From: Escherichia phage vB_vPM_PD114
Direction: 5' to 3' (one strand)
Length of the DNA: 64,000 nucleotides
Sequence record: MH675927.1
Shown here: piece by piece, positions 23,001-50,640 of the stretch
Layout of the letters: every line of letters starts with the position of its first letter
Position numbering within the stretch: the stretch's first letter is position 1
The notes under the pieces: generated by a model
What the model saw: the letters and a program-made list of their open reading frames with translations, nothing else
Database searches by the model: none
What the model was told of the DNA's origin: nothing
Program-made: the position numbers and the translations under genes

Positions 23001-23597
23001 TTACTCGAACCAATCGTCGCCAGCGCCAAACGCTTTAACTACATCGTAAATATCAAGCCCAGCTTTACCTACACCATATGCTTTCAGTTTCCATTCACTA
23101 TCTTCCCGTACCAGGGAGGCAACGTGGCAAATGGTGTTACCTGCAAGTTCTGGAGCCAAGAAATCAAAGTCCAGCAGTTCAACATTACGTTCATCATCGA
23201 AGATTTTAAGGAAACCTTCGGTAGCATGACCAAGGCGTTTCTTACCCGTTTCGTCATCAATAGTAATTACGAATGCAATTTCCTGTGCTTCAGCAGAGAT
23301 ATTATCCAGTGTAACATCAATCTGCTCCATTTGTCCTACACCGTCACGAACATCTTCACCTGCAAAAGTAGAACGTTCAGGATCAAATTTCTGTGCGTAG
23401 CATACCAGGTGGCGAGGAGACAACAGTTCCGGCAGACCAGATGCATTGTGTCGGCAAATCAGAGCACTAACATCCAGATCCAGTTTTTCGTTAGATTTCC
23501 AAGAGAATTCCAGACGAATACGTTTCAGTGCTGGTGCGATCTTTTTCAGAGAAACTTTTTCGCTAGAACCTTTTTTCAGGGAAATTTTCTGAGTCAT
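23001..23597 (-). CDS. TerD-domain protein (tellurium-resistance TerD/TerZ family)
   Basis: N-terminal ISLKKGSSEKVSLKK and C-terminal ...WKLKAYGVGKAGLDIYDVVKAFGAGDDWFE follow the TerD pattern (acidic core, C-terminal W-K-F-x-A-x-G-x-G); RBS AAGGAGA. Confidence 0.75.
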   Translation of the reverse strand: MTQKISLKKGSSEKVSLKKIAPALKRIRLEFSWKSNEKLDLDVSALICRHNASGLPELLSPRHLVCYAQKFDPERSTFAGEDVRDGVGQMEQIDVTLDNISAEAQEIAFVITIDDETGKKRLGHATEGFLKIFDDERNVELLDFDFLAPELAGNTICHVASLVREDSEWKLKAYGVGKAGLDIYDVVKAFGAGDDWFE

Positions 23598-23670
23598 AAT
23601 TTATTATCTCCTTTGTTGTTAATTTACGTTGTCTATTTTACTAATCTTTTCTACAAAGTCAAGCGTTTTT

Positions 23671-24465
23671 TTACGCTTTTGCTCCGAATTTTTTAACCCA
23701 CTCGCCAAACTCTTCGGATAACAGTTTATCGTAGAGTTCTTCATCAGACAAGGACAAATCTGCAATACCGATAAAATCAACATTATCGTATTCTTTTGCC
23801 AAGTCTTTCAGGAATTTAAAGTTTGCATTACCTACACCAACCATAAACCAGTAAACAGGCGTATTGCGGTGTTTGTTCAGTAAGCTACGTACTGCTGAAG
23901 TATCCATGTTCTCCCCGTCAGTTTGGAAGAAAATCATTGCAGGAGTACGATCAACTTGTGCATCAGTATCTACAACCTGTTCTACAACAGTACGTGTTAC
24001 TTCTACAAGTTCTTTTTTACCAGTTAATTTAGCAAGGAAACCCTTAGCCGGAACTTCTTCATACTCAACGACTTCGCGTGTAATATTTTTCATAGGTACA
24101 CTACCGAAGTATGTATCATAGATCTCTTGCATTACTGGAGCATAAGCAGTACCACCGTTGATGCAAACATTAGACATGCAAGAGCCGACATAATCATCAT
24201 ACACATCAGCCGTTGCAGGAGGCAGTTCAAAAGAAGAACTATTGAAAGCCCACATGTCAATCTGTGCATTGTCATCAAACTTCATACCAAACGGCAGCAG
24301 TTTACCTACAAAATCACTAACAGTGCCATCACGATACAGCTCACACATACTACCCGAAATATCTAAGGCGCTACCGACACGAAGAACAACATCGTTAATC
24401 TTTTTCTTACGCAGAGATACAGTAAGAGTTTCTTGACGTTTTTTAAGACTGATTTTATTGGACAT
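23671..24465 (-). CDS. von Willebrand factor A (vWA) domain protein, TerF/TerY-like
   Basis: MIDAS motif LDISGSM, downstream GGTAYAPV and IFFQTDGEN; short TerD-like N-terminal ISLKK segment; adjacent to TerD. Confidence 0.65.
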   Translation of the reverse strand: MSNKISLKKRQETLTVSLRKKKINDVVLRVGSALDISGSMCELYRDGTVSDFVGKLLPFGMKFDDNAQIDMWAFNSSSFELPPATADVYDDYVGSCMSNVCINGGTAYAPVMQEIYDTYFGSVPMKNITREVVEYEEVPAKGFLAKLTGKKELVEVTRTVVEQVVDTDAQVDRTPAMIFFQTDGENMDTSAVRSLLNKHRNTPVYWFMVGVGNANFKFLKDLAKEYDNVDFIGIADLSLSDEELYDKLLSEEFGEWVKKFGAKA

Positions 24466-24466
24466 A

Positions 24467-24736
24467 TTATTTCTCCTTTCTGAGTGTAATGTTAGTAACT
24501 TCTAAATCCACTTCTACCATTTCTGTATCATATGAAATACAGCTAAGTTGACCTCTTTGTGAACCGTTCAGACACATTGCTTGGTTTGTATTAACTTTAA
24601 TAAACACTAAGTTTCTGAACGTATCTAAACCAGAATCTTGATACGCAACATAATATACGAATGTATCACCTGCGTCAAGTTCTCCAAAACATTTAGGTTC
24701 ATCTGATTTATCGTCTTTGATATTAAATTTAAGCAC
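24467..24736 (-). CDS. hypothetical protein
   Basis: 89-aa ORF tightly packed in operon. Confidence 0.4.
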   Translation of the reverse strand: MLKFNIKDDKSDEPKCFGELDAGDTFVYYVAYQDSGLDTFRNLVFIKVNTNQAMCLNGSQRGQLSCISYDTEMVEVDLEVTNITLRKEK

Positions 24737-25292
24737 TGTCTTCTCCTTTACCTGCTCTCAAACCTAAATAGAAAGCCTCTCTGGTGATCTTTTGCAACTC
24801 GTTTAAAGAGATAGTTACAACTAAATCATCTTCAATTTCTAGCTTTGAGTCTTCTTCTGTCTCAATGCAAGTATTATGCACTTTGTGGTAAGGATTGTCA
24901 ACACGTTTAAATTTATTATTTTCAGTGCTGAAGAAGCAATCTGGATCTTCTTCTCCATCACCCCAGCCCTGGTTAGGGTCTTCTTCAGATCTTTCTGTTG
25001 GGATCTCACCTGTAAAGTGCTCTTCTAATACCATAGCGATACCATCTCCAAGATCGGAAGAGAACATCAAATTACAAACTTCTTCCCAAGGCGTAGACCA
25101 CTTAAAACTTTTACGATTGCCATGTTTATCTTCTTCGTTAGAGAAAACACTACCATAGCTATCATAATTGCCATACATCTCTTCAACAACTTTACCACCT
25201 TTCAAAAGAAATAGGTAGCAAGGAGAGCCATCGAAAGAGGTAGAAAGAGCAGCATTACCAGACTCTTTGCACAAGAAACTAAAACACCCCAT
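24729..25292 (-). CDS. hypothetical acidic protein
   Basis: 187-aa ORF. Confidence 0.4.
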   Translation of the reverse strand: MGCFSFLCKESGNAALSTSFDGSPCYLFLLKGGKVVEEMYGNYDSYGSVFSNEEDKHGNRKSFKWSTPWEEVCNLMFSSDLGDGIAMVLEEHFTGEIPTERSEEDPNQGWGDGEEDPDCFFSTENNKFKRVDNPYHKVHNTCIETEEDSKLEIEDDLVVTISLNELQKITREAFYLGLRAGKGEDSA

Positions 25293-25492
25293 TATACACC
25301 AGCCTTAAGATCAATTAAAGCCAAAGTTGTTTCAGAATGTGTTTGCTCGTCTACAGGTGCAGTCATATGATAGTACAAAAAGTCTTCGGCATCATACCAA
25401 TCTGACTCTTGACCTTGTTTCCAACCATCAATGAAAGCATCTTCCATAATGGTTTGTAATTCTTCACGAGTTAAGTGAATATCTTTATTCAT
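25292..25492 (-). CDS. hypothetical protein
   Basis: 66-aa ORF, abutting neighbours. Confidence 0.35.
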   Translation of the reverse strand: MNKDIHLTREELQTIMEDAFIDGWKQGQESDWYDAEDFLYYHMTAPVDEQTHSETTLALIDLKAGV

Positions 25493-25725
25493 TACACATT
25501 CTCCTCTTTTACCAATCCCATCGTTGAACTATCAAAACCATCTTTAGAAGAATAGGTATAGACAGAACGTAGTTCTCGCAGGACAGTAAACACATTAGGA
25601 TCATCTAACCAAGCATCCTGGAGGAGAACATAACGATCTTCATTGTCGTACTGGACAGCGATCATAGAACCAGACAGTTTGTAAATTTTAATATTCATAA
25701 TATATTTCTCCTTAAAGTAGACCAC
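25492..25725 (-). CDS. hypothetical protein
   Basis: 77-aa ORF. Confidence 0.35.
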   Translation of the reverse strand: MVYFKEKYIMNIKIYKLSGSMIAVQYDNEDRYVLLQDAWLDDPNVFTVLRELRSVYTYSSKDGFDSSTMGLVKEENV

Positions 25726-26815
25726 GTTTAACAGTTTGAATCATACCATCTTCAAGAGATTGTACTTCTTGAATGTAATCAATACGAGCAGCACGGGCTT
25801 CAGTGTTGATTCGGTTAGTTTCTTCCAACATTTTAACTAAGTTTTCTTGATCGCGACGTAATGTTTCAATATCCAATACTTGACGATTAGCAAGTTGCGT
25901 AGCTTCAATTTGGTTTTGTGCAGCCAGATCACTACCCATTGCAATAGCCGCATTAAATTCATTCAGTACATTGTTCTGTGTATCGGCTGCTTTCTTCTGG
26001 CGTAGACTTTCAATATACATAGAAAAGTTTGCAGAGTAAGCAGGAATAACATTATTCACAATATTACGGGCTGATCGCATCAAACTTGCAGATACTTTCT
26101 GCATACTTTGTACACGTGGCCCCATCTGAACACACAGTAAACGCAAGGCTTTCAGGTCTGCAATACGAATTTCAAGCAGATCCATAGTATCACGAGTACG
26201 TTGACGCTCTTCTACTTCATTTTCAGGTAGTGTATTAAGGCGAACTTCTTCTTTTTCATAAGTAGCTGTTAGAAGCTCTATATCCCTGTTTAAGCTAAGA
26301 GCATATTTTGCAATAGCCTCTTCTAAACGTTGCAGATATCGTAAAGAATCTTCTTCTTTTTTCAAGTCTGTTTGGAGTGTCTTTACCAAACCTTCAATAC
26401 GATTATTGATGGTGTCAAATTCACCAAACAAATCTTCTTTCATACCTAATACTTTCTTAACTAGTTTACCTAAGCCTTTAGATTGTTTAATAGAGTTAGG
26501 ATCAAGTTGCTTTGCTTGCTTAATAAGTGCAGTTAAACGTTCACTCATTTCATCTCCCTGGGATGAACGCTGGTGTTTAAGCACTTCAGCATTAAGGTTA
26601 CGAAGAGTAAGTCCTGCATCAGCACCAACCTGTTCAATCTCTTCACGAGACATTGGAGGCAGCATTTGTACAGGTCGTGCAACAGCAGGGGCATATACAG
26701 GGCTTGCATCCATAGCACTTGGAGCAAACAAAGACTTACTTTTTTCTGTTGTTGCCGTGAATACACTCATTTCAGACGGTTTGCTTTTTACGGCACTAAT
26801 AAAAGGACTGGACAT
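25712..26815 (-). CDS. TelA-like (toxic anion resistance / KlaB family) protein, tentative
   Basis: 367-aa, strongly coiled-coil protein of TelA-like size and composition; GGAGG RBS; sits among TerD/vWA/TerC genes. Confidence 0.5.
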   Translation of the reverse strand: MSSPFISAVKSKPSEMSVFTATTEKSKSLFAPSAMDASPVYAPAVARPVQMLPPMSREEIEQVGADAGLTLRNLNAEVLKHQRSSQGDEMSERLTALIKQAKQLDPNSIKQSKGLGKLVKKVLGMKEDLFGEFDTINNRIEGLVKTLQTDLKKEEDSLRYLQRLEEAIAKYALSLNRDIELLTATYEKEEVRLNTLPENEVEERQRTRDTMDLLEIRIADLKALRLLCVQMGPRVQSMQKVSASLMRSARNIVNNVIPAYSANFSMYIESLRQKKAADTQNNVLNEFNAAIAMGSDLAAQNQIEATQLANRQVLDIETLRRDQENLVKMLEETNRINTEARAARIDYIQEVQSLEDGMIQTVKRGLL

Positions 26816-26883
26816 TCAATTTCCTCCATATTCTTTAGTAGATGGTGATACCTCTGTACCACCATCATAACACAAATTAAGTA

Positions 26884-27735
26884 TTAAACAAACATATCTA
26901 AATAATTTGTAGTAATAAATGCTCCATCTGCTTCCAGATTAACATAACCAGTAGCATTAGTGGTTAAGAAATCCAGATCGAAGGACTCTTTAACACCCCG
27001 TACCTCAACACGAGAGATATCGAATACAGGTAGTGTAACAGCCTCTTCGTGCAATACCGTACCTTTGTAGGTTGCCTTAATGATAAACTTGATATTACCC
27101 GTTCCCGCATCATACAAAACACTTTCAAAGCCTTTGAGAGTATACTTATCACCAGAGGTGAAGTGCAAAGTTGCTTTGTTTACAGTACGTTTTTTACGAG
27201 GAGTTCCTTTCACACGTTTATGATCACTACGTTTTTTGTATTTAGGAATGAATACAAACGATACACTCTCAAGAAAAGTATCAACATCAAGGATTTTAAT
27301 ATCCTCTGTTTCAGCAAATTTTGAAGTCGTTGCATCAAAATGCTTTGCCCTGCGATCATACATAAAGATATCAAACCGATCTTCTAAATCAAACAAATTG
27401 TGTATCTTAATTTCAGAATGCTTGCACATTGCAGCAACCTTAAACTCTTCAAAACGTGGGTGTTCTACAAGCTCTTCAAGTTTTACACCAAAGACAGTAT
27501 ATTGTTTCGAAGTTTTTTCTGGCGTTGGCATTACAGAAGCATAATCACCGATTGCGCTTTTAAAGCAAAATTGTTCTTGACCTGTATTTTTACCAACGAA
27601 TTTACAGTATTCGTCATCGTGCATACTTTCTTTGGTAGTACCAACAAACTCAAAACCATCTTTATTCTTCTCAAGAATTTCTTGATTAAAGATCAAACCT
27701 TCCAGGCGATACACTTTACCAACTTCTAGTTTCAT
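26884..27735 (-). CDS. hypothetical protein
   Basis: 283-aa ORF; no motif recognised. Confidence 0.45.
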   Translation of the reverse strand: MKLEVGKVYRLEGLIFNQEILEKNKDGFEFVGTTKESMHDDEYCKFVGKNTGQEQFCFKSAIGDYASVMPTPEKTSKQYTVFGVKLEELVEHPRFEEFKVAAMCKHSEIKIHNLFDLEDRFDIFMYDRRAKHFDATTSKFAETEDIKILDVDTFLESVSFVFIPKYKKRSDHKRVKGTPRKKRTVNKATLHFTSGDKYTLKGFESVLYDAGTGNIKFIIKATYKGTVLHEEAVTLPVFDISRVEVRGVKESFDLDFLTTNATGYVNLEADGAFITTNYLDMFV

Positions 27736-27770
27736 CTGTTTCTCCTTCTTATTTAATCTGTATTAAATTA

Positions 27771-28361
27771 TTAACGACGACGTGAGCTACTAAAACTACG
27801 TTTCGACGAAGAATAACTTTTCGAAGACTTACTATAAGAGCTAATAGGGCTTGAGTAAGACTTACGAGCAGAGTAATCACTATTCACTTTTGTTGTTGAT
27901 GGGCGTGAATACGTTTGTACACTTTGCTGCTTAATTGTGTTTTGTTTAGTGGTTGTATATGTATTCCCTTGTTTATCATAAAAACTATGCTTTTGTGTTG
28001 TATATGCTTTACTATTAGTTGTAGGAGCAGCGTTGTTATTGATAATTGTTGTATTGCTACCGCCATCTCTATAACCACCACCGCCACTATTACCACTCAA
28101 CATATGACCAAGAAGCATACCTGTAGCAAACTCACCTACGCCAGAAGAACCACTGCCGCCTCCTTGCACAACAACTGTTGAAGGTTGTGCAGGTGCTGCT
28201 TGAACAACTTGAGGTGCAGGTTGATTTACATATTGTTCATCTACCATCTGATTTGGTGTTTGTTGGTAACGTTGGTTTTGTACACTTTCAGAATCATCAC
28301 AACCTACCAGCAATGCACTGCCTAAAACAACTGCAACAATAAAAGATTTAATGTTTTTCAT
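27771..28361 (-). CDS. lipoprotein with Gly/Ser-rich low-complexity region
   Basis: Start at ATG 28361 (RBS GAGGG); signal peptide ending in lipobox LLVGC; GGGSGSSG and S/Y/K-rich tail. Confidence 0.5.
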   Translation of the reverse strand: MKNIKSFIVAVVLGSALLVGCDDSESVQNQRYQQTPNQMVDEQYVNQPAPQVVQAAPAQPSTVVVQGGGSGSSGVGEFATGMLLGHMLSGNSGGGGYRDGGSNTTIINNNAAPTTNSKAYTTQKHSFYDKQGNTYTTTKQNTIKQQSVQTYSRPSTTKVNSDYSARKSYSSPISSYSKSSKSYSSSKRSFSSSRRR

Positions 28362-28554
28362 CTGTAACCCTCTCATTTAAAGTCTCGACACAATTTTTAA
28401 AATCTCTAGAGAAACAATACATCTGTTCTCCGTTCCTGTTGATAGTAATTGTATGGTTATCAACATATGTTGTCAAGATAAAAATCAAACAAAATAACCC
28501 TAAAGCAAAACAAATATTTTCAAACAGAATCCAAAGAACACGTAAAACCACCAT
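28348..28554 (-). CDS. small membrane protein
   Basis: 68 aa with one hydrophobic helix. Confidence 0.3.
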   Translation of the reverse strand: MVVLRVLWILFENICFALGLFCLIFILTTYVDNHTITINRNGEQMYCFSRDFKNCVETLNERVTDEKH

Positions 28555-28565
28555 CAGATCACCTC

Positions 28566-28590
28566 AATAAAGCCCCCGAAGGGGCTTAAT
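28566..28590 (-). terminator. rho-independent terminator after the TerC gene
   Basis: AGCCCC-CGAA-GGGGCT hairpin followed on the minus strand by TTATTGAGG. Confidence 0.5.
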
Positions 28591-28593
28591 GAA

Positions 28594-29571
28594 TTAAGCA
28601 ACAGCCTGGTCTTCTTTTTCAGGGAAGATTAAACTTGCAATAACACCCAGCCCCAGAGTACCTAACACAATATACATACTGATCGTCGGATCAATGTGTG
28701 CTGGCAGGAAACTCACTTTTGCGTGCAGAGTTTCTGCAAACGGGTGATACATCAGTTTTACACCCACAAATACCAGGACTACGATAACTGCTTTCTCCAG
28801 ATGAACCAAATATTTCAGTGCAACACTAAGGACAAAGAACAGAGCACGTAGACCTAAAATTGCACACAGCATTGAAGAAAATACAAGCAGAGGTTCTTGT
28901 GTCACTGCAATTACTGCTGGAACAGAGTCTACTGCAAAGATTACGTCAACCATTTCCATTACAAACACACAAACCAATGCAGGAGTTGCTACACGAACAC
29001 CATTTTTGATTGTGAAGAACTTCTCACCATCCATCTGATCAGATACAGGGAACAGCTTACGAACAATGCGAGTAGCCCAATGTTTAGAGTAATCAACTTC
29101 TGCGTCATTATCTCCAGCAAATACCATTTTAGCTGCACAGAAAAGGATGACCGCACCGAAGAAGATATTAACATACCAGCCCAAACTCAACAAGTAAGTA
29201 CCTACTGCTACAAACACACCTCGGAAGACAATCGCACCTGCAATACCCCAAAGTAGAATCTTATGCTGCAAGTGTGTGCTTTTAATACCAAAACTTGCGA
29301 ATACTGCCACAAATACTACTAAGTTATCTACAGAAAGAGATTTCTCCAACACATACCCACTCAAGAACAAGCTCGCAAAATCAGCACCGTGTTGGAAGTA
29401 TACAAAACCATAGTAGGCTAACGATACCCCAATCCAGAAGATTGACCAGCCAATTGCAGATTTAAATGAAATTTCTTTGTTTTCTCTGTGTCCAAAGAAA
29501 TCAATACAAATCGACAAGACTAAAATACCCACTAAAACAACCACATCAATAATTGGGAAACCCAGTTGCAT
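28594..29571 (-). CDS. TerC-family integral membrane protein
   Basis: Multiple TM helices; hallmark EKSLSVDNLVVFVAVF and second repeat DVIFAVDSVPAVIAV (TerC/Alx signature). Confidence 0.8.
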   Translation of the reverse strand: MQLGFPIIDVVVLVGILVLSICIDFFGHRENKEISFKSAIGWSIFWIGVSLAYYGFVYFQHGADFASLFLSGYVLEKSLSVDNLVVFVAVFASFGIKSTHLQHKILLWGIAGAIVFRGVFVAVGTYLLSLGWYVNIFFGAVILFCAAKMVFAGDNDAEVDYSKHWATRIVRKLFPVSDQMDGEKFFTIKNGVRVATPALVCVFVMEMVDVIFAVDSVPAVIAVTQEPLLVFSSMLCAILGLRALFFVLSVALKYLVHLEKAVIVVLVFVGVKLMYHPFAETLHAKVSFLPAHIDPTISMYIVLGTLGLGVIASLIFPEKEDQAVA

Positions 29572-29589
29572 TCTTTTCTCCTCTTTAAT

Positions 29590-29608
29590 GCGGAGGACAA
29601 TCCTCCGC
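29590..29608 (-). other. intergenic stem-loop (GCGGAGGA-CAA-TCCTCCGC)
   Basis: 8-bp GC stem immediately upstream of the TerC RBS. Confidence 0.3.
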
Positions 29609-29648
29609 TCTATGTCGTATACTATAAACTGTTTTTAAAGAAAGTCAA

Positions 29649-29897
29649 CTAGTTCAGTTCTGTAATTTTAAGTTTATCTTCTTTGTTAATGATAGGGAAA
29701 GCTACAGCATCACCTACATCATCAATAAAGCAAATAGCAAGACCACCTTCCACTTTGCTAACCTGACCATTAAAGGCGTGATACGGGGTAGGAACAATAT
29801 CTCCATCTTCAAGGAGAATAGCCTCATAAACCTTACCAACAGTACAATCACGAGTGTTTATAAATTTTTCAAGCACTTCAACATTTACTTTACGCAT
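29649..29897 (-). CDS. hypothetical protein
   Basis: 82-aa ORF. Confidence 0.4.
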   Translation of the reverse strand: MRKVNVEVLEKFINTRDCTVGKVYEAILLEDGDIVPTPYHAFNGQVSKVEGGLAICFIDDVGDAVAFPIINKEDKLKITELN

Positions 29898-29911
29898 ATA
29901 AAGATCCTCTC

Positions 29912-30118
29912 TTATTTGTTAGATTGAAAGATACCACGAAGTACCGCAAGAATGAACGTCACACAGACTACACTCCAAAACGTTACAGGAACATGATGCC
30001 AGTCTAAGCCGATAATGTCAATCATATAGTTGTATGCTAAAAGCAGTAGCCAACTAGGGATTAACACAATCAAGAACACAACAATAAAACAACCTAATAC
30101 TGCTAAAACACCTGCCAT
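29912..30118 (-). CDS. small membrane protein (two TM helices)
   Basis: 68 aa, hydrophobic. Confidence 0.4.
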   Translation of the reverse strand: MAGVLAVLGCFIVVFLIVLIPSWLLLLAYNYMIDIIGLDWHHVPVTFWSVVCVTFILAVLRGIFQSNK

Positions 30119-30127
30119 ACTTTCTCC

Positions 30128-30844
30128 TTATTTCAGTTTGTAAACAATTACATTTAAACCTTTGTTCACTAGAGTTTCTTCGATCATAAGTTTTACAATA
30201 TTCCAAGAACCTCCAGCCAAACCACAACCAAGCATTGGTAAACCTACAATTTTACCGCCTGAAGATACAACATCGTCTCCCATACTATCTAACGCATTGT
30301 AGATAGCTTCATAATTCAGGTCACGCTTACCTTCCTCACGACGACTATAACCATATTGTCCATATAAATTATAAATTGTCAAATTGTTTTCTGTATACTT
30401 AGTAAACGTACCTAATTTTTTATAATCACCACGTTTAGTGGCACAATCTGCTTTAAACGCACCAGGCCACTTGCTTTTAATTTTTGGTGCAATACCACTA
30501 CCCATAGTGCAAAAACAGTTACAGCAGTGTGCTATAGCGTCTATATCGCCTCTCTCGGCTGCTGCTAAAAGATCACCGTATACCTCAATGATACCTGCTG
30601 GATAACTTGTTACAATTTCATCTTCCCAGTACATTTGCTCTACACCACCGATTAGTGCAAAGTTTTGTGTAATGCGATCATCAATATAATTAAGACCTGA
30701 AACATACACAGCATATTCATCCTGTGCTGTAATGCCTTGTACACGAATTCTTAAGACACCATCTTTATCTGTTGCTACACGCCCAAAATCTTTTTCTGTA
30801 ATACTGGTGATAGGATCTCCGAAAGTCGTCACTTTATTAGACAT
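30128..30844 (-). CDS. Macro-domain protein (ADP-ribose binding/processing) with N-terminal extension
   Basis: Start at ATG 30844 (RBS AAAGGGGA); C-terminal half GDIDAIAHCCNCFCTMGSGIAPKIK ... GLPMLGCGLAGGSW matches macro-domain blocks. Confidence 0.6.
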   Translation of the reverse strand: MSNKVTTFGDPITSITEKDFGRVATDKDGVLRIRVQGITAQDEYAVYVSGLNYIDDRITQNFALIGGVEQMYWEDEIVTSYPAGIIEVYGDLLAAAERGDIDAIAHCCNCFCTMGSGIAPKIKSKWPGAFKADCATKRGDYKKLGTFTKYTENNLTIYNLYGQYGYSRREEGKRDLNYEAIYNALDSMGDDVVSSGGKIVGLPMLGCGLAGGSWNIVKLMIEETLVNKGLNVIVYKLK

Positions 30845-31694
30845 AATAATCCCCTTTAACATTAGATTTGTTGATAATGTTGCTTTCAAAAAATTGATGC
30901 AGGAAATCAAAGTTCTCTTTGTATTTTTCAATATTATTGTAACCTTCTGCAAGGCAACCAAAGAACAGTTGTTCTACATAATACAAAGGAAGTTGTGAAA
31001 GTGCAATTTTAAAATCAACTTCGCTTTGACTCATTAGATACTTAATAGGACGAACCAAACATTTAGCATCAGTTTCTTGCTTAATCATTTTAATAAAAGC
31101 TGCCAGGTTATTGATATAGTTGAAGTTAAGTGCAGCTTCGGTGTTGGCTTCTGTACCTTCATACTTTGCAAAGTACAGGAAAAACGTATCGTTTTCAACA
31201 CCTTCTTTGTCTAAAATTTCAATAAGTTTTTCTTCGTGTGTTCCTGTAATATTAACATCATCAATGAAAATCAGAGTTTTATTACCCCAGAAATCACGAT
31301 TGATAGAGAAAGTGTCACCATCGATCAAAGCCTTACGATCTTCTTTGCTAAGAAATCCATAATCATTGATATAACTCACTTTACGATGAACGATATCCCA
31401 CTCTACTGCTTTACCTCCTTTGATAGAGATTAGGTAGTTGAGGTGATCTACAAAATGTTCAGATAACACTGTAGCTGCATTTTTCACATAGTTATATGGA
31501 GATGGAATAACAACAAAACTTTCATTTACTAGTCGTTCTTCATATTTAAAAAAGAAACTTTCAGCCAGAATGCGTCCCATTCTTTTTGCTGCCTGGTTAC
31601 TACCAAACTTTAGTTTGGAATAATCTGCAATGTTAAATTTTGCTTCCTTCAGGTTAGTAAAAGTATTAGCAAAATGTTGAATTTGATTACGCAT
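30837..31694 (-). CDS. phosphoribosyltransferase (type I PRTase) domain protein
   Basis: PRPP-binding motif TLIFIDDVNITGTHEEK (hydrophobic-DD-hydrophobic-x-TG-T); RBS GAGG; overlaps the HAD stop by 8 nt. Confidence 0.6.
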   Translation of the reverse strand: MRNQIQHFANTFTNLKEAKFNIADYSKLKFGSNQAAKRMGRILAESFFFKYEERLVNESFVVIPSPYNYVKNAATVLSEHFVDHLNYLISIKGGKAVEWDIVHRKVSYINDYGFLSKEDRKALIDGDTFSINRDFWGNKTLIFIDDVNITGTHEEKLIEILDKEGVENDTFFLYFAKYEGTEANTEAALNFNYINNLAAFIKMIKQETDAKCLVRPIKYLMSQSEVDFKIALSQLPLYYVEQLFFGCLAEGYNNIEKYKENFDFLHQFFESNIINKSNVKGDYYV

Positions 31695-32343
31695 TAATAA
31701 GTTCCTCTTTTTTAAGTTTAGCCAACAAGTCTTCTGGATTAATAATATGACAGAACTTCATCCCTATGTCAACAGCTTTTCCATCATAAATCAAACTATC
31801 CCCAACGTGTAAAATCTCCTCTGGTGCGAGATCAAACGTTACCATTTCATCAAAAGAGAGTTTAAAAAACCTAGGATCTGGTTTACACAAGCAAAACTCA
31901 TCAGAAAAATGCATAAAGTCAAATGGTAATTTTGTTAAGCCAGAATATACAGCTAAGAAACTACCTGGTACAAAATTAGTATTGCTCTTAATACTCAAAG
32001 AATAGGTTGAACTTAGCTCTTCCAACTTCTTGCAAAGCTCAGGGTTCAATATTGGAGGATGTTTTATAAACATTGCTAAACAGTCTCTTTTTAACCCATC
32101 CACTTTATCAAGATCAATGTTGAAACGAGTAGAAAGTGTTTCCCAAGCGTTCCTAGACGTTCCACAAATGCCTTTTTCTGCTTTTAAATCCAGGAGAGTT
32201 TTTACCTCTTTATATACGGTAGCTGCTTCTGCCTCAGAACAAGAGGCATACTCGGCAATAACCTTGTTGCGTTCTTCTGCATACAAAGGATTAGCAGTAA
32301 TAAGAGTATTCCATACATCAAAAGAAATATGCTTAACAGTCAT
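31687..32343 (-). CDS. HAD-superfamily hydrolase (phosphatase-like)
   Basis: Start at ATG 32343 (RBS GGAGG); motif I ISFDVWNTL and motif IV HVGDSLIYD (GDxxxD). Confidence 0.55.
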   Translation of the reverse strand: MTVKHISFDVWNTLITANPLYAEERNKVIAEYASCSEAEAATVYKEVKTLLDLKAEKGICGTSRNAWETLSTRFNIDLDKVDGLKRDCLAMFIKHPPILNPELCKKLEELSSTYSLSIKSNTNFVPGSFLAVYSGLTKLPFDFMHFSDEFCLCKPDPRFFKLSFDEMVTFDLAPEEILHVGDSLIYDGKAVDIGMKFCHIINPEDLLAKLKKEELINA

Positions 32344-32345
32344 TT

Positions 32346-32501
32346 TTAATCCTCCGTCCAAAAGAATATCATCTGCTTAATTTTATTGATCTCTTGATGT
32401 AGTAACTTTCCAGCATGTGATTGATCTTTAATATTGACAGCAAGAATTTCAAGCTCCGTTAGTTTTTCCTGGATAGCTTTATATTCATCATCTGTAAGCA
32501 T
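32346..32501 (-). CDS. small hypothetical coiled-coil protein (not in supplied ORF track)
   Basis: ATG 32501 with RBS AAGGGG; 51 codons; fills the gap before the HAD gene. Confidence 0.3.
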   Translation of the reverse strand: MLTDDEYKAIQEKLTELEILAVNIKDQSHAGKLLHQEINKIKQMIFFWTED

Positions 32502-32721: not shown

Positions 32722-32747
32722 TAAAGGAGGCTTTCGCCTCCTTTTAT
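32722..32747. terminator. rho-independent terminator (GGAGGC-TTTC-GCCTCC)
   Basis: Hairpin with T-tracts on both strands; downstream of the AAA ATPase gene on the minus strand. Confidence 0.5.
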
Positions 32748-32750
32748 CAC

Positions 32751-33911
32751 TTAGTAAGAACGACCACCAAACACATACTCTGTGTAGTTTTTACGTTCTT
32801 TGTTTTTAATAACAACTTCAATGTTGTTACCTTTATCATCGGTGAACATAAAGTGATAGCCGTCACCACCCATTGTACGAATGTGTTTTTCATCATACGT
32901 TAGCAAGATACGGTCTACACCCCAGTAGTAGTCACCTTCTTCATCTTTATCTTCTACGGTAACAATCCCTTCCATTTCAGGAAGATGCTCTTCTCCTGAC
33001 TTATGATCTACAGCTACAACATAACGATTACCGCTAAACAAACCTTGTGCTGTCATACCGTCAATATCGGTATCTGACGAAACATCTCCTGTACGATCTA
33101 CACCGTTAACTTTCAGAAGTTTAACTTCTTTTGCAGCATAGCCGTGTTCAGTAATACTGATACCCATTAATGCAAGTGCATCAGAGAATTTGTCATTAGG
33201 ATAACGGTTAAGTTCTTCTACTAATGACTGAACAATATCAAAGTTCAAATCCACGGAGAGATTATAAAGCGTTTCAAAATCTGGTAAGAAGGCTTTGTTC
33301 TCCAGATTTTTAGCCAGATAATCATCCATAGTAGCTTTAGGTAGTTTCTTATAGCTAAAACTGTAGAAAATACGGCTAGGACGATTACGCAAAAATTCTG
33401 ATACATAACCATCATTTTTAGTCAATACAAACAGCTTGTCATAACCACCAACACCATCCAGCAGGGTAAGCAAACCATCTTGTGCATCTTTTTCAGCATA
33501 CAGTTTATCAAATTCATCGATCATAATCATCACAGGTTGTGTGATTTTAGACATAAAATTGATAAAGCCTTCACCATTAAAAGCACTACCGATAGAAATA
33601 GTAGGAATACCCATTTCACGAAGAGCAGAAGACAGCATTTTAGCTTGCAAAGTTTTACCGCTACCTTTCGTACCCTCAAGGAGAACACCTGTGTTTTTAC
33701 CTTTGCGGCTAAGGAACGTCTTGATAATACGTTCTGATTTATCATCAGTATCACCGTATGTTACTGAAGGGACTTCCATATCATTTTTAGGATACAGGAA
33801 GAACTCGCCACTTTGAGTAACACCTACACCAAAAGTTCCTGCTGGAATTTCTTCAATATCTGTACCAGACTTCTGACGCAGGAAGATTTGATTGCCGAAT
33901 ACTGTAAACAT
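32751..33911 (-). CDS. AAA-type ATPase, paralog A
   Basis: Walker A GTKGSGKT, Walker B IMIDEFDK, sensor-like RPSRIFY; paralog of 49472-50599 with a divergent C-terminal half. Confidence 0.65.
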   Translation of the reverse strand: MFTVFGNQIFLRQKSGTDIEEIPAGTFGVGVTQSGEFFLYPKNDMEVPSVTYGDTDDKSERIIKTFLSRKGKNTGVLLEGTKGSGKTLQAKMLSSALREMGIPTISIGSAFNGEGFINFMSKITQPVMIMIDEFDKLYAEKDAQDGLLTLLDGVGGYDKLFVLTKNDGYVSEFLRNRPSRIFYSFSYKKLPKATMDDYLAKNLENKAFLPDFETLYNLSVDLNFDIVQSLVEELNRYPNDKFSDALALMGISITEHGYAAKEVKLLKVNGVDRTGDVSSDTDIDGMTAQGLFSGNRYVVAVDHKSGEEHLPEMEGIVTVEDKDEEGDYYWGVDRILLTYDEKHIRTMGGDGYHFMFTDDKGNNIEVVIKNKERKNYTEYVFGGRSY

Positions 33912-33931: not shown

Positions 33932-34402
33932 TTAGTCAGATTCCCAAATGTTGTCTTTCTTAACCCACATTCGTTGATTATCTGAACCTCTATAACGTTT
34001 CGTTGTTGGTTGATTCATATCATACTTACCATCTATCACTATGTCAACCAGTTTTTTAATTTTCTCTGGAATTTCTTCAAAAAGATATCCTGTATATAAG
34101 ACAATATCTTTTTTGTTTCCAAAACAATCTCTTACCTTCTCAAGAACATACTCTACAGTGTCAATGTTCTCTTTGTCAAGAGGTTCACCACCTAAAACTG
34201 TTAATCCTTTAATGAAAGGTCGAGATAAATCTTCCAAGATAAGATCTAATGTTTCAGCAGTGAACTCTTGTCCGTAATTATACGACCAGGCTTTCTGGTT
34301 AAAGCAGCCACGGCAACCGTGGCTACAACCGCTCACCCACAAAGAGCATCTTACACCGTCACCGTTGAGCATGTCAACAGGTTCATATCCGGCGTAATTC
34401 AA
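33932..34402 (-). CDS. nrdG: anaerobic ribonucleotide reductase activating protein NrdG (radical SAM)
   Basis: MNYAGYEPVDMLNGDGVRCSLWVSGCSHGCRGCFNQ follows the NrdG N-terminus including the CxxxCxxC radical-SAM cluster; TTG start; 4-nt overlap with nrdD stop. Confidence 0.85.
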   Translation of the reverse strand: MNYAGYEPVDMLNGDGVRCSLWVSGCSHGCRGCFNQKAWSYNYGQEFTAETLDLILEDLSRPFIKGLTVLGGEPLDKENIDTVEYVLEKVRDCFGNKKDIVLYTGYLFEEIPEKIKKLVDIVIDGKYDMNQPTTKRYRGSDNQRMWVKKDNIWESD

Positions 34403-35340
34403 AAATGTTTCTCCCTTTCTAGTACCTCTTGCATTTTACCTTTATTATAAGGGCGAGAGTTAGGAGCAGAAAGGTATCCTGACACTCTTCTGATCACAGA
34501 TATGGATTCTTCTTCATGATTACCGCAACTTGGACACTCGAAGCCTTTAGCCGTTGCTTTAAACTCACCATGAAAACCACATTTGAAACACTGATCTACA
34601 GGTTGGTTCACGCCAAAATAAGGAATTTTGTTGTAGGCATAATCTACAAGAGTTTCCAGTGCTTGCAAGTTATTTTTAAGGTTTGGTGTTTCTACATAAC
34701 CTATGTTCCCACCGTTACTAATTTGTGCAAAACCTTCCTCATAATCCCACTTTTGGAACGGGGTAGTGTGCATCCATACAGGTTGATGGAAAGAGTTTGT
34801 CAAGTAGTCACGATCAATAGAACCAGGATAGCGATCATTTAATGCTTTGGCAAATTTATAGCACAAGGATTCTGCTGGTGTTCCATACAAACTAAAAGCT
34901 AAACCAGAACGTTCTTTAAATGTGCCACAGATATCCTTCATATATTGAAGGATGTTTTTACCCATTGCTTTTGGATTGGTGTTACCTGGGTATAAAATCT
35001 CCATAGCTTCTGCTAAACCTACATAACCGATACTAATAGAGGCATAACCACCTTCGAATAGTTTACCAATCTCTTCATTAGCTTCTAGTCGAGCTAAAGC
35101 CCCTTCCATAAACAATGTAGGGTTTTGAGATGCTTTGGTATGTCTAATACGGTTAACACGTAGCATATGTGCCTTATACGCCATCTCCATATGTTGTTCC
35201 AACAGTTCAGTAAATAAGATGCCCTTTTCACGGGACTCTGCTGCAATGATAGGTAAGTTTAAAGAAACTACGCCTAAGTTGAAACGACCATCATATTTTT
35301 CACCTTGCTCTGTTGCATAGTATGACAAGAAACTTCTACA
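34399..35340 (-). CDS. nrdD: anaerobic ribonucleotide reductase NrdD, exon 2
   Basis: C-terminal zinc ribbon CFKCGFHG...CPSCG and glycyl-radical motif RRVSGYL; exon starts TGT AGA (CRSFLSYY) right after the predicted 3-prime splice site. Confidence 0.8.
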   Translation of the reverse strand, partial: CRSFLSYYATEQGEKYDGRFNLGVVSLNLPIIAAESREKGILFTELLEQHMEMAYKAHMLRVNRIRHTKASQNPTLFMEGALARLEANEEIGKLFEGGYASISIGYVGLAEAMEILYPGNTNPKAMGKNILQYMKDICGTFKERSGLAFSLYGTPAESLCYKFAKALNDRYPGSIDRDYLTNSFHQPVWMHTTPFQKWDYEEGFAQISNGGNIGYVETPNLKNNLQALETLVDYAYNKIPYFGVNQPVDQCFKCGFHGEFKATAKGFECPSCGNHEEESISVIRRVSGYLSAPNSRPYNKGKMQEVLEREKHF

Positions 35341-35619
35341 CATTATGTTCAAAGTGGCTCGCAAGGCCACTCCCGCACCATTACGTGCTGCTGCATGTCA
35401 CCATGCAGATCAGACTATATCTTCATGCTTAAAGCATGTCTACCATTTGGGGTGTCATAGGCTTACACCCTACGCTGCTACATTCATCACAGCTAGTCGT
35501 TAGGCATTTCGTAATAGTACCCCCTTCTTCTGTGTTGGGAGTTCTGTTACGTTTAGCACGGGATTGTCTCGTTGAGAGTTCCCCCGTTTAGGCAGATTTT
35601 ACATGAGCAGTTATAGTTT
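35341..35619 (-). ncRNA. group I self-splicing intron (td-like, no internal ORF) interrupting nrdD
   Basis: 279 nt between the two nrdD reading frames; core-like TAAACGGGGGAACTCTCAACGAGACAATCCCGTGCTAAAC and P7 3-prime element AAGATATAGTC; CTGCATG-GTGA-CATGCAG hairpin near the 3-prime end; ends GAACATAATG; exon 1 ends ...ATGGGT. Confidence 0.75.
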
Positions 35620-36477
35620 ACCCATGCTTGTGACGCGACCATCTGAAGATCCTGTAACTTCTTTGTTTAAAGGTACAGAGATAAAATCAGGATAAATGCG
35701 TTCAGCACAACACTCCATTGCCAGTTGCTTCAAATCATAGTTTGGATCGCCAGCTTTCATGTTAACACCATCTTCCAAGAAGAAGATAACTTTAGGAAAC
35801 ACAGGAGTTACCCTATCTTTTCCTAATCCTTGTTTGTGCACCATTAGGTAGTTTTTAGTGATCATTCTACCAAAAGCAGAGGTATCCAAACCTAAACTAA
35901 TTGTTATAAAAGGTGACTGACCATTTACACTCATTAGAGTGTTCACCTGGTAGATTAAAGTTTGCATTGCATCATAGACCTGTTTATCTACCATACGCAT
36001 AGCAATATCATAATCGCCAACATCGGCATATATTTTATTAAAACTTGCTTTAACGTATTGACTAAGCCCAGTATCAACATGTGCACAAGTTTGTCCACCA
36101 TATTGGCTAGAGGCTACTGCTTGAATAATTTGAGTTAGGACAGTAGTTGCTACACCGATAGATTTTGGTTTTTCAATATGTGCATTACCAATACGGAAAC
36201 CGTTCTCAAGCATATCTTGGTAATTTACCAGGCAACAATTAGTTAGAGGTGAGAGTAAATAATCTAAATCGTGAATGTGACCATACCCGCTTTTATGCCA
36301 TTCTGCCAGATCTTCCGGTAAAATATGGGTCATTGCCATGTGCTTGCTCAGAATACCTGCTAGTAAGTCTCGGTGAGTATTAACAATCATTGCAGGTTTG
36401 TTTGCATTTTCACGAGTAAATTCTTCGGATGTTTGTTCGAGGAATCCGATTACATCCTCATATAGTTTTTGGGTCAT
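35620..36477 (-). CDS. nrdD: anaerobic ribonucleotide reductase NrdD, exon 1
   Basis: Start ATG 36477 (RBS GGAGG); reading frame stops 9 nt into the intron; splicing predicted to join ...RVTSMG to CRSFLSYY..., giving a 599-aa product. Confidence 0.8.
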
Positions 36478-36494
36478 TAATCCTCCGTGGAAAA

Positions 36495-36520
36495 TAAAAG
36501 CCAGCATTAAGCTGGCTTTA
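36495..36520 (-). terminator. rho-independent terminator
   Basis: AAAGCCAGC-TTAATG-CTGGCTTT hairpin followed on the minus strand by TATTTTCC; between 36567-37517 and nrdD. Confidence 0.5.
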
Positions 36521-49022: not shown

Positions 49023-49460
49023 ATGAGTAAAACAAACGCAATTGCAGATAAAGCAACGGATGTACTTCTGAATATGGTTAACGTCACTATTCAAACAATG
49101 AGTGATGTTGTAGAGTTTGGAAAACAACAAATTCCAGAAGTAATCCATCAATTACTAGTGTGGAAAGCAGTATCCGCAGGTTTATGGCAACTTTTTAGTA
49201 TTTGCTTTATGTTTATTACTTTTATTGCTGTGCGGAACCTCGTAAAAGCAATTAAAGATAAAGAATGCCTGTGGTCACGAGATCGCTATGGTGAAGTATC
49301 TGCTTTACCTATTGTTGGTCTTGTTGTCTGTGCTTTCTTTTTCTTTTTAGGATTTGTTATTTTCTTTTCGAATTTTGATTGGCTAAAAATCATTATTGCA
49401 CCAAAAGTGTATCTGATTGAATTTGCTGCTGATTTAATTCGTTCATCTCAACAAAAATAA
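49023..49460 (+). CDS. membrane protein
   Basis: 145 aa with hydrophobic helices; RBS GAGGAA. Confidence 0.45.
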   Translation: MSKTNAIADKATDVLLNMVNVTIQTMSDVVEFGKQQIPEVIHQLLVWKAVSAGLWQLFSICFMFITFIAVRNLVKAIKDKECLWSRDRYGEVSALPIVGLVVCAFFFFLGFVIFFSNFDWLKIIIAPKVYLIEFAADLIRSSQQK

Positions 49461-49471
49461 AAGGGGTTAAA

Positions 49472-50599
49472 ATGAAATACACGATTTATGGTGATATTGT
49501 AAGTGTAAATAAAGATATGGGTGTGGAATCTAATTATCTTCCACCTGGATTCTATACTGTTAGTCGTGATCCCCTTGGCAATTATTTTTTAAGCCGTGGT
49601 AATCTAACAGGTGTACCGGATGTTCTGTATGGTGAAACAGAAAAACGAGCAAATCACGTTATCCGTACATTCCATCGCCGGAGTGCACAAGGTAAAAATA
49701 CAGGTTTGCTTCTGACAGGAACTAAGGGCAGTGGTAAAACTATGTTAGCCAAGCTCATTAGTCGTGACCTTGTAGAAGAAGGTATTCCAACTATTATGGT
49801 TACTCAAGCCTACAGTGATGCTAATTTCATTGAACTTATTAGCAAGATCACCGACAAAGCAGTGATTATTTTTGACGAGTTTGATAAAGTATATGAGAAG
49901 AAACAAGATCAAGAAGCACTTCTCACTTTGTTAGATGGTACTGGCAGTGGTAATAAACTGTTTATTCTAACTAAAAACAGTGGCTTTATCTCTGAATTCT
50001 TTCTAAATCGTCCTAGTCGTGTGTTTTATAATTTTAATTATGATAAAATCTCACTAGAAACTATGATTGACTATTTAGATAAAAACCTGGATAACAAAGC
50101 ACACTTTGATAATTTCCAAAGACTTTGGGATGTAAGTTTAGAGTTGTCCTTTGATGTGATCCAAGGTATAGTAGAAGAACTTAATTTCTACCCTGATTTA
50201 TCCTTTAAAGAATGCATCTCTATGATGGGCGTTTCTTTGGGTGGTGGTAATAAATGGGATATCAGCAGCGTTGTTATTAATGGAAAACTTCAGAAAGTTA
50301 GCTGGGTATCTAGTTGGCATAACTTTACACCTGCAATCTTTTTAGGTGGCTCGTGCACACTAGACGTGTACTTGTCATCTCCAAGTGATGCAGACTCTAA
50401 AGAAGCCCTTGCTAATAGCTCTTACGTGGTTTTTGATGATGAAGGCGATGCTCGAATTCCATTGAATGCGACAAAAATGAAAGCAGATCTTATTACAGGC
50501 GGTAAAATCGTTGTGTTTAGTGATGATCCAGAAGATTCTTTCCGTATTGTTCTGGAACCAACTATCACCAATGGTGCAACTTTGGCAAGTGTGTTTTAA
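49472..50599 (+). CDS. AAA-type ATPase, paralog B
   Basis: Walker A GTKGSGKT, Walker B IIFDEFDK, RPSRVFY; N-terminal 230 aa colinear with 32751-33911, C-terminal half unrelated. Confidence 0.65.
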   Translation: MKYTIYGDIVSVNKDMGVESNYLPPGFYTVSRDPLGNYFLSRGNLTGVPDVLYGETEKRANHVIRTFHRRSAQGKNTGLLLTGTKGSGKTMLAKLISRDLVEEGIPTIMVTQAYSDANFIELISKITDKAVIIFDEFDKVYEKKQDQEALLTLLDGTGSGNKLFILTKNSGFISEFFLNRPSRVFYNFNYDKISLETMIDYLDKNLDNKAHFDNFQRLWDVSLELSFDVIQGIVEELNFYPDLSFKECISMMGVSLGGGNKWDISSVVINGKLQKVSWVSSWHNFTPAIFLGGSCTLDVYLSSPSDADSKEALANSSYVVFDDEGDARIPLNATKMKADLITGGKIVVFSDDPEDSFRIVLEPTITNGATLASVF

Positions 50600-50612: not shown

Positions 50613-50640
50613 TAAAAACCCGCTTCGGCGGGTTTTCTTG
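50613..50640 (+). terminator. rho-independent terminator
   Basis: AAAACCCGC-TTCG-GCGGGTTTT followed by CTTG. Confidence 0.7.

Follow-up and report, generated by a model that had tools for sequence, protein, structure and literature searches.

The 64,000-nucleotide stretch of Escherichia phage vB_vPM_PD114 analyzed here (sequence record MH675927.1), referred to below as the window, encodes two related AAA ATPases, which we designated ATPase 1 and ATPase 2, and a vWA protein. Escherichia phages W22, ECGD1 and PHB05 and their relatives (Stephanstirmvirinae, genus Justusliebigvirus) match the window at 98-99% identity. An initial annotation, made from the sequence alone, had placed open reading frames (ORFs) for the three proteins at 32751-33911 (minus strand), 49472-50599 (plus strand) and 23671-24465 (minus strand), and all three were found exactly there. 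The two ATPase genes and the parts of the proteins that they encode (aa, amino acids) are listed below.

32751-33911, minus strand: ATPase 1, 386 aa; extra paralog of Justusliebigvirus and a few relatives, corresponding to PHB05 gp184
33777-33911, minus strand: N-terminal beta-domain of ATPase 1, aa 1-45
33342-33704, minus strand: AAA core of ATPase 1, aa 70-190
33156-33341, minus strand: four-helix lid of ATPase 1, aa 191-252
32787-33143, minus strand: C-terminal beta-domain of ATPase 1, aa 257-375
32754-32786, minus strand: aromatic tail of ATPase 1, aa 376-386
49472-50599, plus strand: ATPase 2, 375 aa; the copy held in common with single-copy Phapecoctavirus phages, corresponding to PHB05 gp214
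49472-49609, plus strand: N-domain of ATPase 2, aa 1-46
49688-50050, plus strand: AAA core of ATPase 2, aa 73-193
50051-50236, plus strand: lid of ATPase 2, aa 194-255
50246-50566, plus strand: C-terminal beta-domain of ATPase 2, aa 259-365
50567-50596, plus strand: tail of ATPase 2, aa 366-375

The two ATPases had been described as sharing about 230 N-terminal residues. BLASTP aligned residues 2-253 of ATPase 1 with residues 3-256 of ATPase 2 at 47% identity (E 1e-81), a span of about 253 residues, and the motifs GTKGSGKT, (I/F)DEFDK and NRPSR were found in both proteins as reported. Between the paralogs, identity was 24.5% over the first 50 residues versus 57.5% over the AAA core. Both proteins matched the PHROG 2376 'ATPase' profile, ATPase 1 over aa 1-376 (E 5.3e-104) and ATPase 2 over aa 1-367 (E 6.6e-108), and the two covered 357-358 of the 363 profile positions, that is, end to end. 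ATPase 1 and ATPase 2 are true paralogs, with a likeness far beyond chance, and both are ordinary paralogs of an already catalogued family.

Clade assignment by profile hidden Markov models and structure prediction, a check that the initial annotation had proposed, returned the classical AAA clade for both ATPases. PF00004 was the best Pfam match in each case (29.4 bits for ATPase 1 and 38.9 bits for ATPase 2; gathering cut-off, 21.2). Among the Pfam models, AAA_3 did not match either ATPase, and AAA_5 scored 14.5 bits with ATPase 1 (below its cut-off of 22) and 22.4 bits with ATPase 2, both well under PF00004. The best 60 matches of the family profile in the PDB comprised only p97/Cdc48, NSF, VAT, Afg2, Rix7/NVL and Bcs1 (E down to 3e-13), and the top 50 Foldseek matches of the ATPase 2 model in the PDB were all Bcs1, Rpt, FtsH, NSF, Cdc48, Mpa or YjoB. 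Two fold searches ranked the classical AAA clade first, with Bcs1 as the best structural match. Scores with the NCBIfam models of replication factors were far below their cut-offs: 29.8 versus 194.8 for Hda, 27.5 versus 189 for PRK08116, 19.9 versus 200 for IstB, 14.7 versus 228 for DnaI, and 12-13 bits versus 250-303 for RFC and DnaX. The score with the RuvB family model was also far below its cut-off. The secondary PHROG matches were 'clamp loader' (E 1e-8), which is about 100 orders of magnitude weaker than the match to PHROG 2376, and 'DnaC-like helicase loader' (E 1e-6). Assignment to the clamp loaders or to another standard replication factor had been named in advance as part of what would refute the initial reading, and this outcome was not obtained. 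PADLOC defence models gave insignificant P-loop matches only. These results placed both ATPases in the classical AAA clade and not among the clamp loaders, DnaC-type loaders or MoxR proteins.

The catalytic motifs agree with this assignment. Motif conservation was counted across 108 family members, with ATPase 1 numbering. Residues G80, G83, G85 and K86 of Walker A, D132 and E133 of Walker B, N166 of sensor 1, and R177 and R180 of the second region of homology (SRH), the latter two within 'NRP[GS]R', were invariant in all 108 members, and the Walker A, Walker B, sensor-1 asparagine and SRH arginines are intact in both paralogs. The 'NRP[GS]R' segment was aligned by HMMER to the 'RPGR' of p97 D2, and the 'QxxLLTLLDG' segment resembles the 'QLLTLMDG' helix of p97. 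No invariant or near-invariant arginine was found in the lid after R180, and sensor 2 is therefore lacking. An invariant F224-D225 pair was placed, in an alignment made by eye, at the position of the classical AAA 'GAD'. The pore-loop-1 position is aromatic (F, W or Y) in 90 of the 108 members and is followed by x-Gly in 81; the aromatic residue is F111 in ATPase 1 and Y114 in ATPase 2. One metagenomic homologue of 727 aa (P0243) carries an intein-like LAGLIDADG/Hom_end insertion of about 370 aa inside Walker A, between GEKGSGK and T. Intein-like insertions typically persist at conserved, functionally critical sites, and the one in P0243 suggests selection on the P-loop.

The C-terminal halves of the two ATPases had been called unrelated. 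The divergent part is smaller than that, comprising the last 120-135 residues or about one third of each protein, and BLASTP found nothing significant between these segments of ATPase 1 and ATPase 2. Both AlphaFold models were confident, with a predicted local distance difference test (pLDDT) score of 88.7 for ATPase 1 and 90.2 for ATPase 2, and after residue 260 both contain strands, a short helix, more strands and a terminal helix in the same order. For profile-profile comparison with hhalign, the C-terminal domains of the family were split into three groups: ATPase 1 orthologues (group 1), ATPase 2 orthologues (group 2), and proteins of 368 aa from metagenomic contigs only (group 3). Group 3 matched group 1 with 95% probability (3.9e-8) and group 2 with 92% probability (5.3e-7), and group 2 matched the remaining family with 95% probability; the head-to-head comparison of groups 1 and 2 was weak (14% probability). 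The case for homology of the two C-terminal domains comes from this link through the intermediate group 3. A group 3 protein (P0025) aligned with ATPase 1 over 98% of its length at 46% identity. A common layout was found in 47 aligned C-terminal domains, consisting of a first strand, an 'NP' motif, an acidic variable loop and a 'GGxxxF...VVV' strand pair. These results, together with the end-to-end match to PHROG 2376, indicated that the C-terminal parts of ATPase 1 and ATPase 2 are fast-evolving versions of one beta-rich domain. Orthologue pairs of the ATPase 1 group are 82-91% identical in the AAA core versus 42-51% in the C-terminal domain (90% versus 50% in one example), and in one orthologue pair of the ATPase 2 group the corresponding values are 88% versus 35%.

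The C-terminal domain had no significant match in the PDB as a profile (best E 0.45) and no relative in Pfam. Against 1.84 billion representative proteins, the same profile recovered the ATPase family only, as full-length proteins, gene fragments and one 727-aa member, plus matches to repeat proteins. Five long repetitive proteins (P0133, P0175, P0200, P0249 and P0264) matched through 10-12 weak stretches each, and P0133, the one of these that was read, is built of Ig-like repeats. These matches may be compositional, reflecting the acidic loop and beta strands, or at most a distant beta-sandwich resemblance.

The family also has a conserved tail. The extreme C-terminal residue is hydrophobic or aromatic in 98 of the 108 members, and a frequent motif is [FY][ND][WY]xxAF-COOH. 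ATPase 2 ends in ATLASVF. In ATPase 1, YTEYVF is followed by five extra residues (GGRSY), so that the motif is internal. Judged from its low pLDDT in both models, the tail is probably flexible.

The vWA protein is encoded in a different setting. PF10138 (vWA-TerF-like) matched it with 133.8 bits, confirming that 23671-24465 encodes a vWA protein, and its gene lies directly upstream of terD. The surrounding genes form a Ter module at 23001-32361 (minus strand) with a complete component list, as follows.

23001-23597, minus strand: TerD, Pfam 98.2 bits
23671-24465, minus strand: TerF-type vWA protein, 264 aa; PF10138, E 1.2e-38; phrog_5359
25712-26815, minus strand: TelA, Pfam 118.3 bits
28594-29571, minus strand: TerC, Pfam 133.1 bits
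30128-30844, minus strand: macro-domain 'phosphatase', Macro 30.8 bits
30837-31694, minus strand: ComF-like PRTase (PRTase_3), Pfam 141.1 bits
31687-32361, minus strand: HAD hydrolase, Pfam 25.4 bits

The Ter module is conserved in Phapecoctavirus, where the vWA protein is about 66% identical. Phage Ter systems with these components were reviewed by Iyer et al. 2021 (PMC7824862), who list no AAA ATPase among the Ter components, treat MoxR-vWA chaperone pairs as a separate matter, and propose that Ter systems help to exclude superinfecting phages. The vWA protein is a component of the Ter module and not a partner of the ATPases. In GenBank records the genes of the Ter module are mostly named 'hypothetical proteins'. 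Read from its TTG start at 30961, the mechanical ORF of the macro-domain gene (30128-30961) has 125 nt in common with the PRTase gene. In the PHB05 annotation the gene begins at an internal start, equivalent to about position 30844, and this start is probably the real one.

The two ATPase genes differ in strand and in the gene block to which they belong, and a consensus scan placed a terminator-like hairpin behind each of them.

32723-32744, minus strand: terminator-like hairpin, 7 nt after the ATPase 1 stop; 9-bp stem with 5 GC pairs, T-rich tail
50615-50636, plus strand: terminator-like hairpin, 16 nt after the ATPase 2 stop; closes the small-ORF block

A tightly packed block of small rightward ORFs begins at about 46955, just past a strand switch, and ends with ATPase 2. 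In Phapecoctavirus, the orthologue of ATPase 2 lies in the same place as a single copy, with 64.5% full-length identity, and the homologues of Salmonella phage 7-11 and Bacillus phage Bcp1 lie among small, early-looking genes. On the minus strand, ATPase 1 comes after nrdD-nrdG and lies at the 3' end of the nrd cluster. A metagenomic orthologue with 68% identity occupies the same position, as does the one in a Klebsiella phage that has both copies, and both copies were also found together on a 151.5-kb metagenomic phage contig. In Phapecoctavirus ESCO25, the ATPase 1 slot is occupied by an unrelated 201-aa ORF. The hairpin behind ATPase 1 is the sole such site in 5 kb, a count not above shuffle expectation, and is no more than suggestive of a separation between ATPase 1 and the downstream Ter module.

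A neighbour-joining tree of the conserved 250 residues contained three well-supported groups, with ATPase 1 and the metagenomic third group together in 50 of 60 bootstraps. The mutual distances of the three groups were 0.64-0.90, versus about 1.2 to the rest of the family. A recent duplication within the genome was rejected, as the distance between the paralogs is about the same as their distance to the third metagenomic group. The tree and distances indicate an old duplication, or an exchange, among related enterobacterial myoviruses as the probable origin of the two copies.

Conserved neighbours of the family were sought at 87 loci from 21 lineages. No gene family was common to more than five of the 21 lineages, and HNH endonucleases and a metallophosphatase formed the best neighbour clusters (4-5 lineages). 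A membrane-protein partner encoded upstream was considered and rejected: the window ORF 49023-49460, with three hydrophobic segments, is not conserved even in Phapecoctavirus, and elsewhere membrane proteins were found upstream in 4 of 76 cases versus a background of 13.6%, which is no enrichment.

Members of the family were found in hundreds of sequenced large phages, including Stephanstirmvirinae, Herelleviridae, lactococcal and staphylococcal siphoviruses, 7-11-like, jumbo and crAss-like phages. They also occur in bacterial genome assemblies, including those of isolates, in mobile-element-like contexts, and the family is not confined to virulent phages. Many GenBank records name both genes 'ATPase' or 'putative ATPase or Zn metalloprotease', and a paper on CRISPRi-ART gave nothing relevant. 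The members in bacterial isolates (loci L025, L069, L080 and L090) include one of Magnetospirillum beside RtcB and one of Microbacterium on a 1.79-Mb contig. The Macrococcus member lies between infB and a DnaB-like helicase gene, and the Lachnospiraceae A4 member between a ResIII helicase with a methyltransferase and RadC.

The architecture of these proteins is a distinct, uncharacterised variant of classical AAA proteins. With the classical AAA proteins (p97/Cdc48 D2, NSF, VAT, Rix7/NVL, Afg2, Rpt/PAN/Mpa and FtsH) they share the Walker A and B motifs, sensor-1 asparagine, 'RPxR', 'QxxLLTLLDG' and the aromatic pore loop 1, as well as the PF00004 score above threshold, the lack of a sensor-2 arginine, and the best profile and fold matches. 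They differ from them in having a single compact AAA module with a shorter pore loop 2 and no visible beta2-alpha2 helix, a small N-terminal beta-domain that is not a known N-domain, and an extra C-terminal beta-domain without a PDB or Pfam relative, and in being carried by phages and mobile elements. Bcs1, the mitochondrial translocase of the folded Rieske protein, is a eukaryotic heptamer with a transmembrane anchor and a Bcs1-specific N-domain; the phage ATPases are 15-18% identical to it, lack a transmembrane segment and carry the C-terminal domain. Bacillus subtilis YjoB (PDB 7w42), which ranked 6 in one fold search and 11 in the other, is likewise a classical AAA protein of single-module build and similar size with an accessory domain. 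It differs in being cellular, in the N-terminal location of its accessory domain, in its identity of about 15%, and in lacking a C-terminal beta-domain or tail.

We propose that ATPase 1 and ATPase 2 are ring-forming, stand-alone protein-remodelling ATPases of the classical AAA clade, a model that we consider probable though well short of certain. Both combine a small beta-domain at the N-terminus with a compact AAA module, whose pore loop is aromatic, and a four-helix lid; the fast-evolving C-terminal beta-domain and the short tail follow. By analogy with other classical AAA proteins, the ATPases would assemble into rings, most likely hexamers, with the heptamer of Bcs1 as a precedent for another number. 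The two SRH arginines would couple ATP hydrolysis between subunits, and the pore-loop aromatics would grip and pull a client, presumably a protein, either unfolding it or dismantling a complex. The variable C-terminal domain, perhaps together with the tail and N-domain, would select the client or an adaptor; it is the candidate specificity determinant because of the differences in evolutionary rate and the duplication. The two paralogs probably act on different clients, because the copies differ mainly in their accessory domains. The suggestion in the initial annotation of one motor adapted to two substrates is compatible with the conserved AAA core and the fast-evolving C-terminal domain, but is not proven. 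ATPase 2 would be the older copy and ATPase 1 an additional, diverged copy, and the gene context of ATPase 2 points to action early in infection. The tail might dock on a peptidase, bind an adaptor or pack against the neighbouring subunit, and both ATPases would act without the vWA protein.

Several observations weigh against this model. Pore loop 2 is shorter than that of p97 by 11-13 residues, as judged from profile alignment gaps, and the short helix between beta2 and alpha2 that typically precedes pore loop 1 in this clade was not seen in either AF2 model, in which beta2 (aa 104-107 in ATPase 1 and 107-110 in ATPase 2) is joined to alpha2 (aa 114-121 and 117-125) by a helix-free loop of six residues. 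Because of the short pore loop 2 and the missing beta2-alpha2 helix, threading may differ from that of canonical unfoldases; Bcs1 passes its folded substrate through a heptamer. The names 'DnaC' and 'DNA replication protein' are given to homologues in some databases, and ATPase 1 sits among genes of nucleotide metabolism and replication. A full-text literature search for a characterised phage AAA protein of this kind, or for the GenBank product name, returned nothing relevant.

A more specific version of the model, which we regard as rather unlikely, holds that the hypervariable C-terminal domain of the unfoldase recognizes host proteins, such as defence or stress complexes, which would then be dismantled or passed to a peptidase via the tail. 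If so, phages with two copies would have widened their target range, and the family, present in many large virulent phages of both Gram-negative and Gram-positive bacteria, would be an ATP-driven factor of a new class that serves host takeover or counter-defence.

The alternative raised by the initial annotation, that one or both ATPases act with the vWA protein as a MoxR-like AAA-vWA chaperone pair, is extremely improbable. Both genes are present in one genome, ATPase 1 adjoins the vWA-containing Ter module on the same strand, a faint VWA_CoxE protein is encoded 2.4 kb downstream of one distant homologue, and other phages do have MoxR-vWA pairs (PMC7824862). The known pairs (RavA-ViaA, and those of group 2.2 jumbo phages and Acidianus two-tailed virus; PMC7824862) resemble the present case in that AAA and vWA proteins are encoded in one viral genome, but they belong to another AAA+ clade (AAA_3/AAA_5) and the gene of the vWA partner is adjacent. 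Here, the ATPases are of the classical clade, the vWA protein is of the TerF type and lies beside TerD in a full Ter module, and its gene is 8.3 kb from ATPase 1, with a terminator-like hairpin between ATPase 1 and the Ter genes, and 25 kb from ATPase 2. The likeness to Ter systems (TerD, TerF-vWA, TelA, TerC, PRTase and HAD), all components of which are matched by the vWA protein and its neighbours, concerns the vWA protein alone, and in one phage genus ATPase 1 happens to adjoin the module. In Phapecoctavirus ESCO25 the Ter module is present with its vWA protein but without ATPase 1, and no vWA cluster was found among the neighbours at the 87 loci. The phyletic distributions of the ATPase family and the vWA protein are also largely disjoint, with most ATPase-family phages lacking the vWA protein. 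Phages of Enterococcus, Bacillus, Staphylococcus, Lactococcus and Lactobacillus top the ATPase organism counts and are not among the leading vWA organisms, whereas phages of Caulobacter, Rhizobium and Brevundimonas have the vWA protein and are not among the ATPase-bearing groups. Acinetobacter phage ME3 has both genes, 39 kb apart. A second possibility, that the ATPases are replication factors (a clamp loader, a DnaC-like helicase loader or an initiator) acting on DNA or on the phage primase-helicase, is very unlikely. It draws on the secondary PHROG matches, the weak NCBIfam matches to Hda and DnaC-like models, the names given to homologues in some sources, the position of ATPase 1 within the nrd/helicase region, and the Macrococcus homologue, which lies 1.7 kb upstream of the DnaB-like helicase gene. 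The resemblance to T4 gp44/62-type clamp loaders and DnaC/IstB loaders is a generic AAA+ P-loop likeness, and the scores far below cut-offs, the precedence of classical AAA proteins in profile and fold searches, and the SRH 'RPxR' pair and 'LLTLLDG' helix, which are marks of the classical clade, argue against a role as replication factors. In addition, the phage ATPases lack an SRC or box VII context and a conserved lid arginine, the models contain a beta-rich C-terminal domain and no helical collar, no helicase or clamp gene was a conserved neighbour in the 21 lineages, and the genes around ATPase 2 and most homologues are small and unrelated to replication.

Two further alternatives were considered. 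The C-terminal tails of PAN/Rpt (HbYX tails), Mpa and HslU dock these AAA rings on peptidases. A similar function of the aromatic tail, in which the ring would dock on a host or phage peptidase (ClpP, HslV or similar) and selected host proteins would be degraded, is consistent with the hydrophobic or aromatic terminal residue, the common [FY][ND][WY]xxAF motif, the probable flexibility of the tail, and the presence of Rpt, Mpa and FtsH among the structural matches. We nevertheless consider it quite unlikely: the motif is not HbYX, the penultimate residue being mostly alanine, it is internal in ATPase 1, no peptidase gene is a conserved neighbour, and the hosts of the family span phyla with differing peptidases. 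Binding of an adaptor, as by the tail of p97, or packing on a neighbouring subunit, as in katanin and Vps4, would be equally possible roles of the tail. A mixed ring of both paralogs, as in Pex1/Pex6 or Yta10/Yta12, likewise carries a very low probability. The interface motifs (SRH arginines and Walker motifs) are conserved in both paralogs, and the copies are retained together in Justusliebigvirus, a Klebsiella phage and the 151.5-kb metagenomic contig. The paralog genes, however, belong to different blocks on opposite strands, a terminator-like hairpin lies behind each of them, and one copy alone is present in Phapecoctavirus and in most other phages. Because most phages are single-copy, homo-oligomers must be functional.

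The new elements of this analysis of a phage AAA family are the clade assignment, the homology of the C-terminal domains, the conserved tail, the lack of a partner gene and the assignment of the vWA protein to the Ter module. The family is widespread in large phages, no described function was found for it, and relatives of this phage are candidates for phage therapy. The conserved motor, the fast-evolving accessory domains, the P-loop intein in one homologue and the repeated duplication point to an important host-facing activity. The practical outcome is a correction, in which the vWA protein goes to the Ter module and the ATPases to a catalogued family.

Other features of the window were noted. 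A scan of the window for tRNA genes found none. The gene just downstream of ATPase 2 (50674-51864, plus strand), named 'endonuclease', encodes a protein with three CapR-homology repeats, which bear zinc-ribbon-like CxxC pairs, and a C-terminal T5orf172 domain, and the same arrangement of a CapR-repeat/T5orf172 gene after the ATPase is present in Phapecoctavirus. The nrdD gene (34399-36507, minus strand) is split into ORFs 34399-35370 and 35611-36507 by a group I intron at 35391-35665 (Rfam RF00028, 72.5 bits, E 2.8e-18). PHB05 lacks the nrdD insertion, and the alignment with it breaks near 35345. Phage T4 also has an intron in nrdD.

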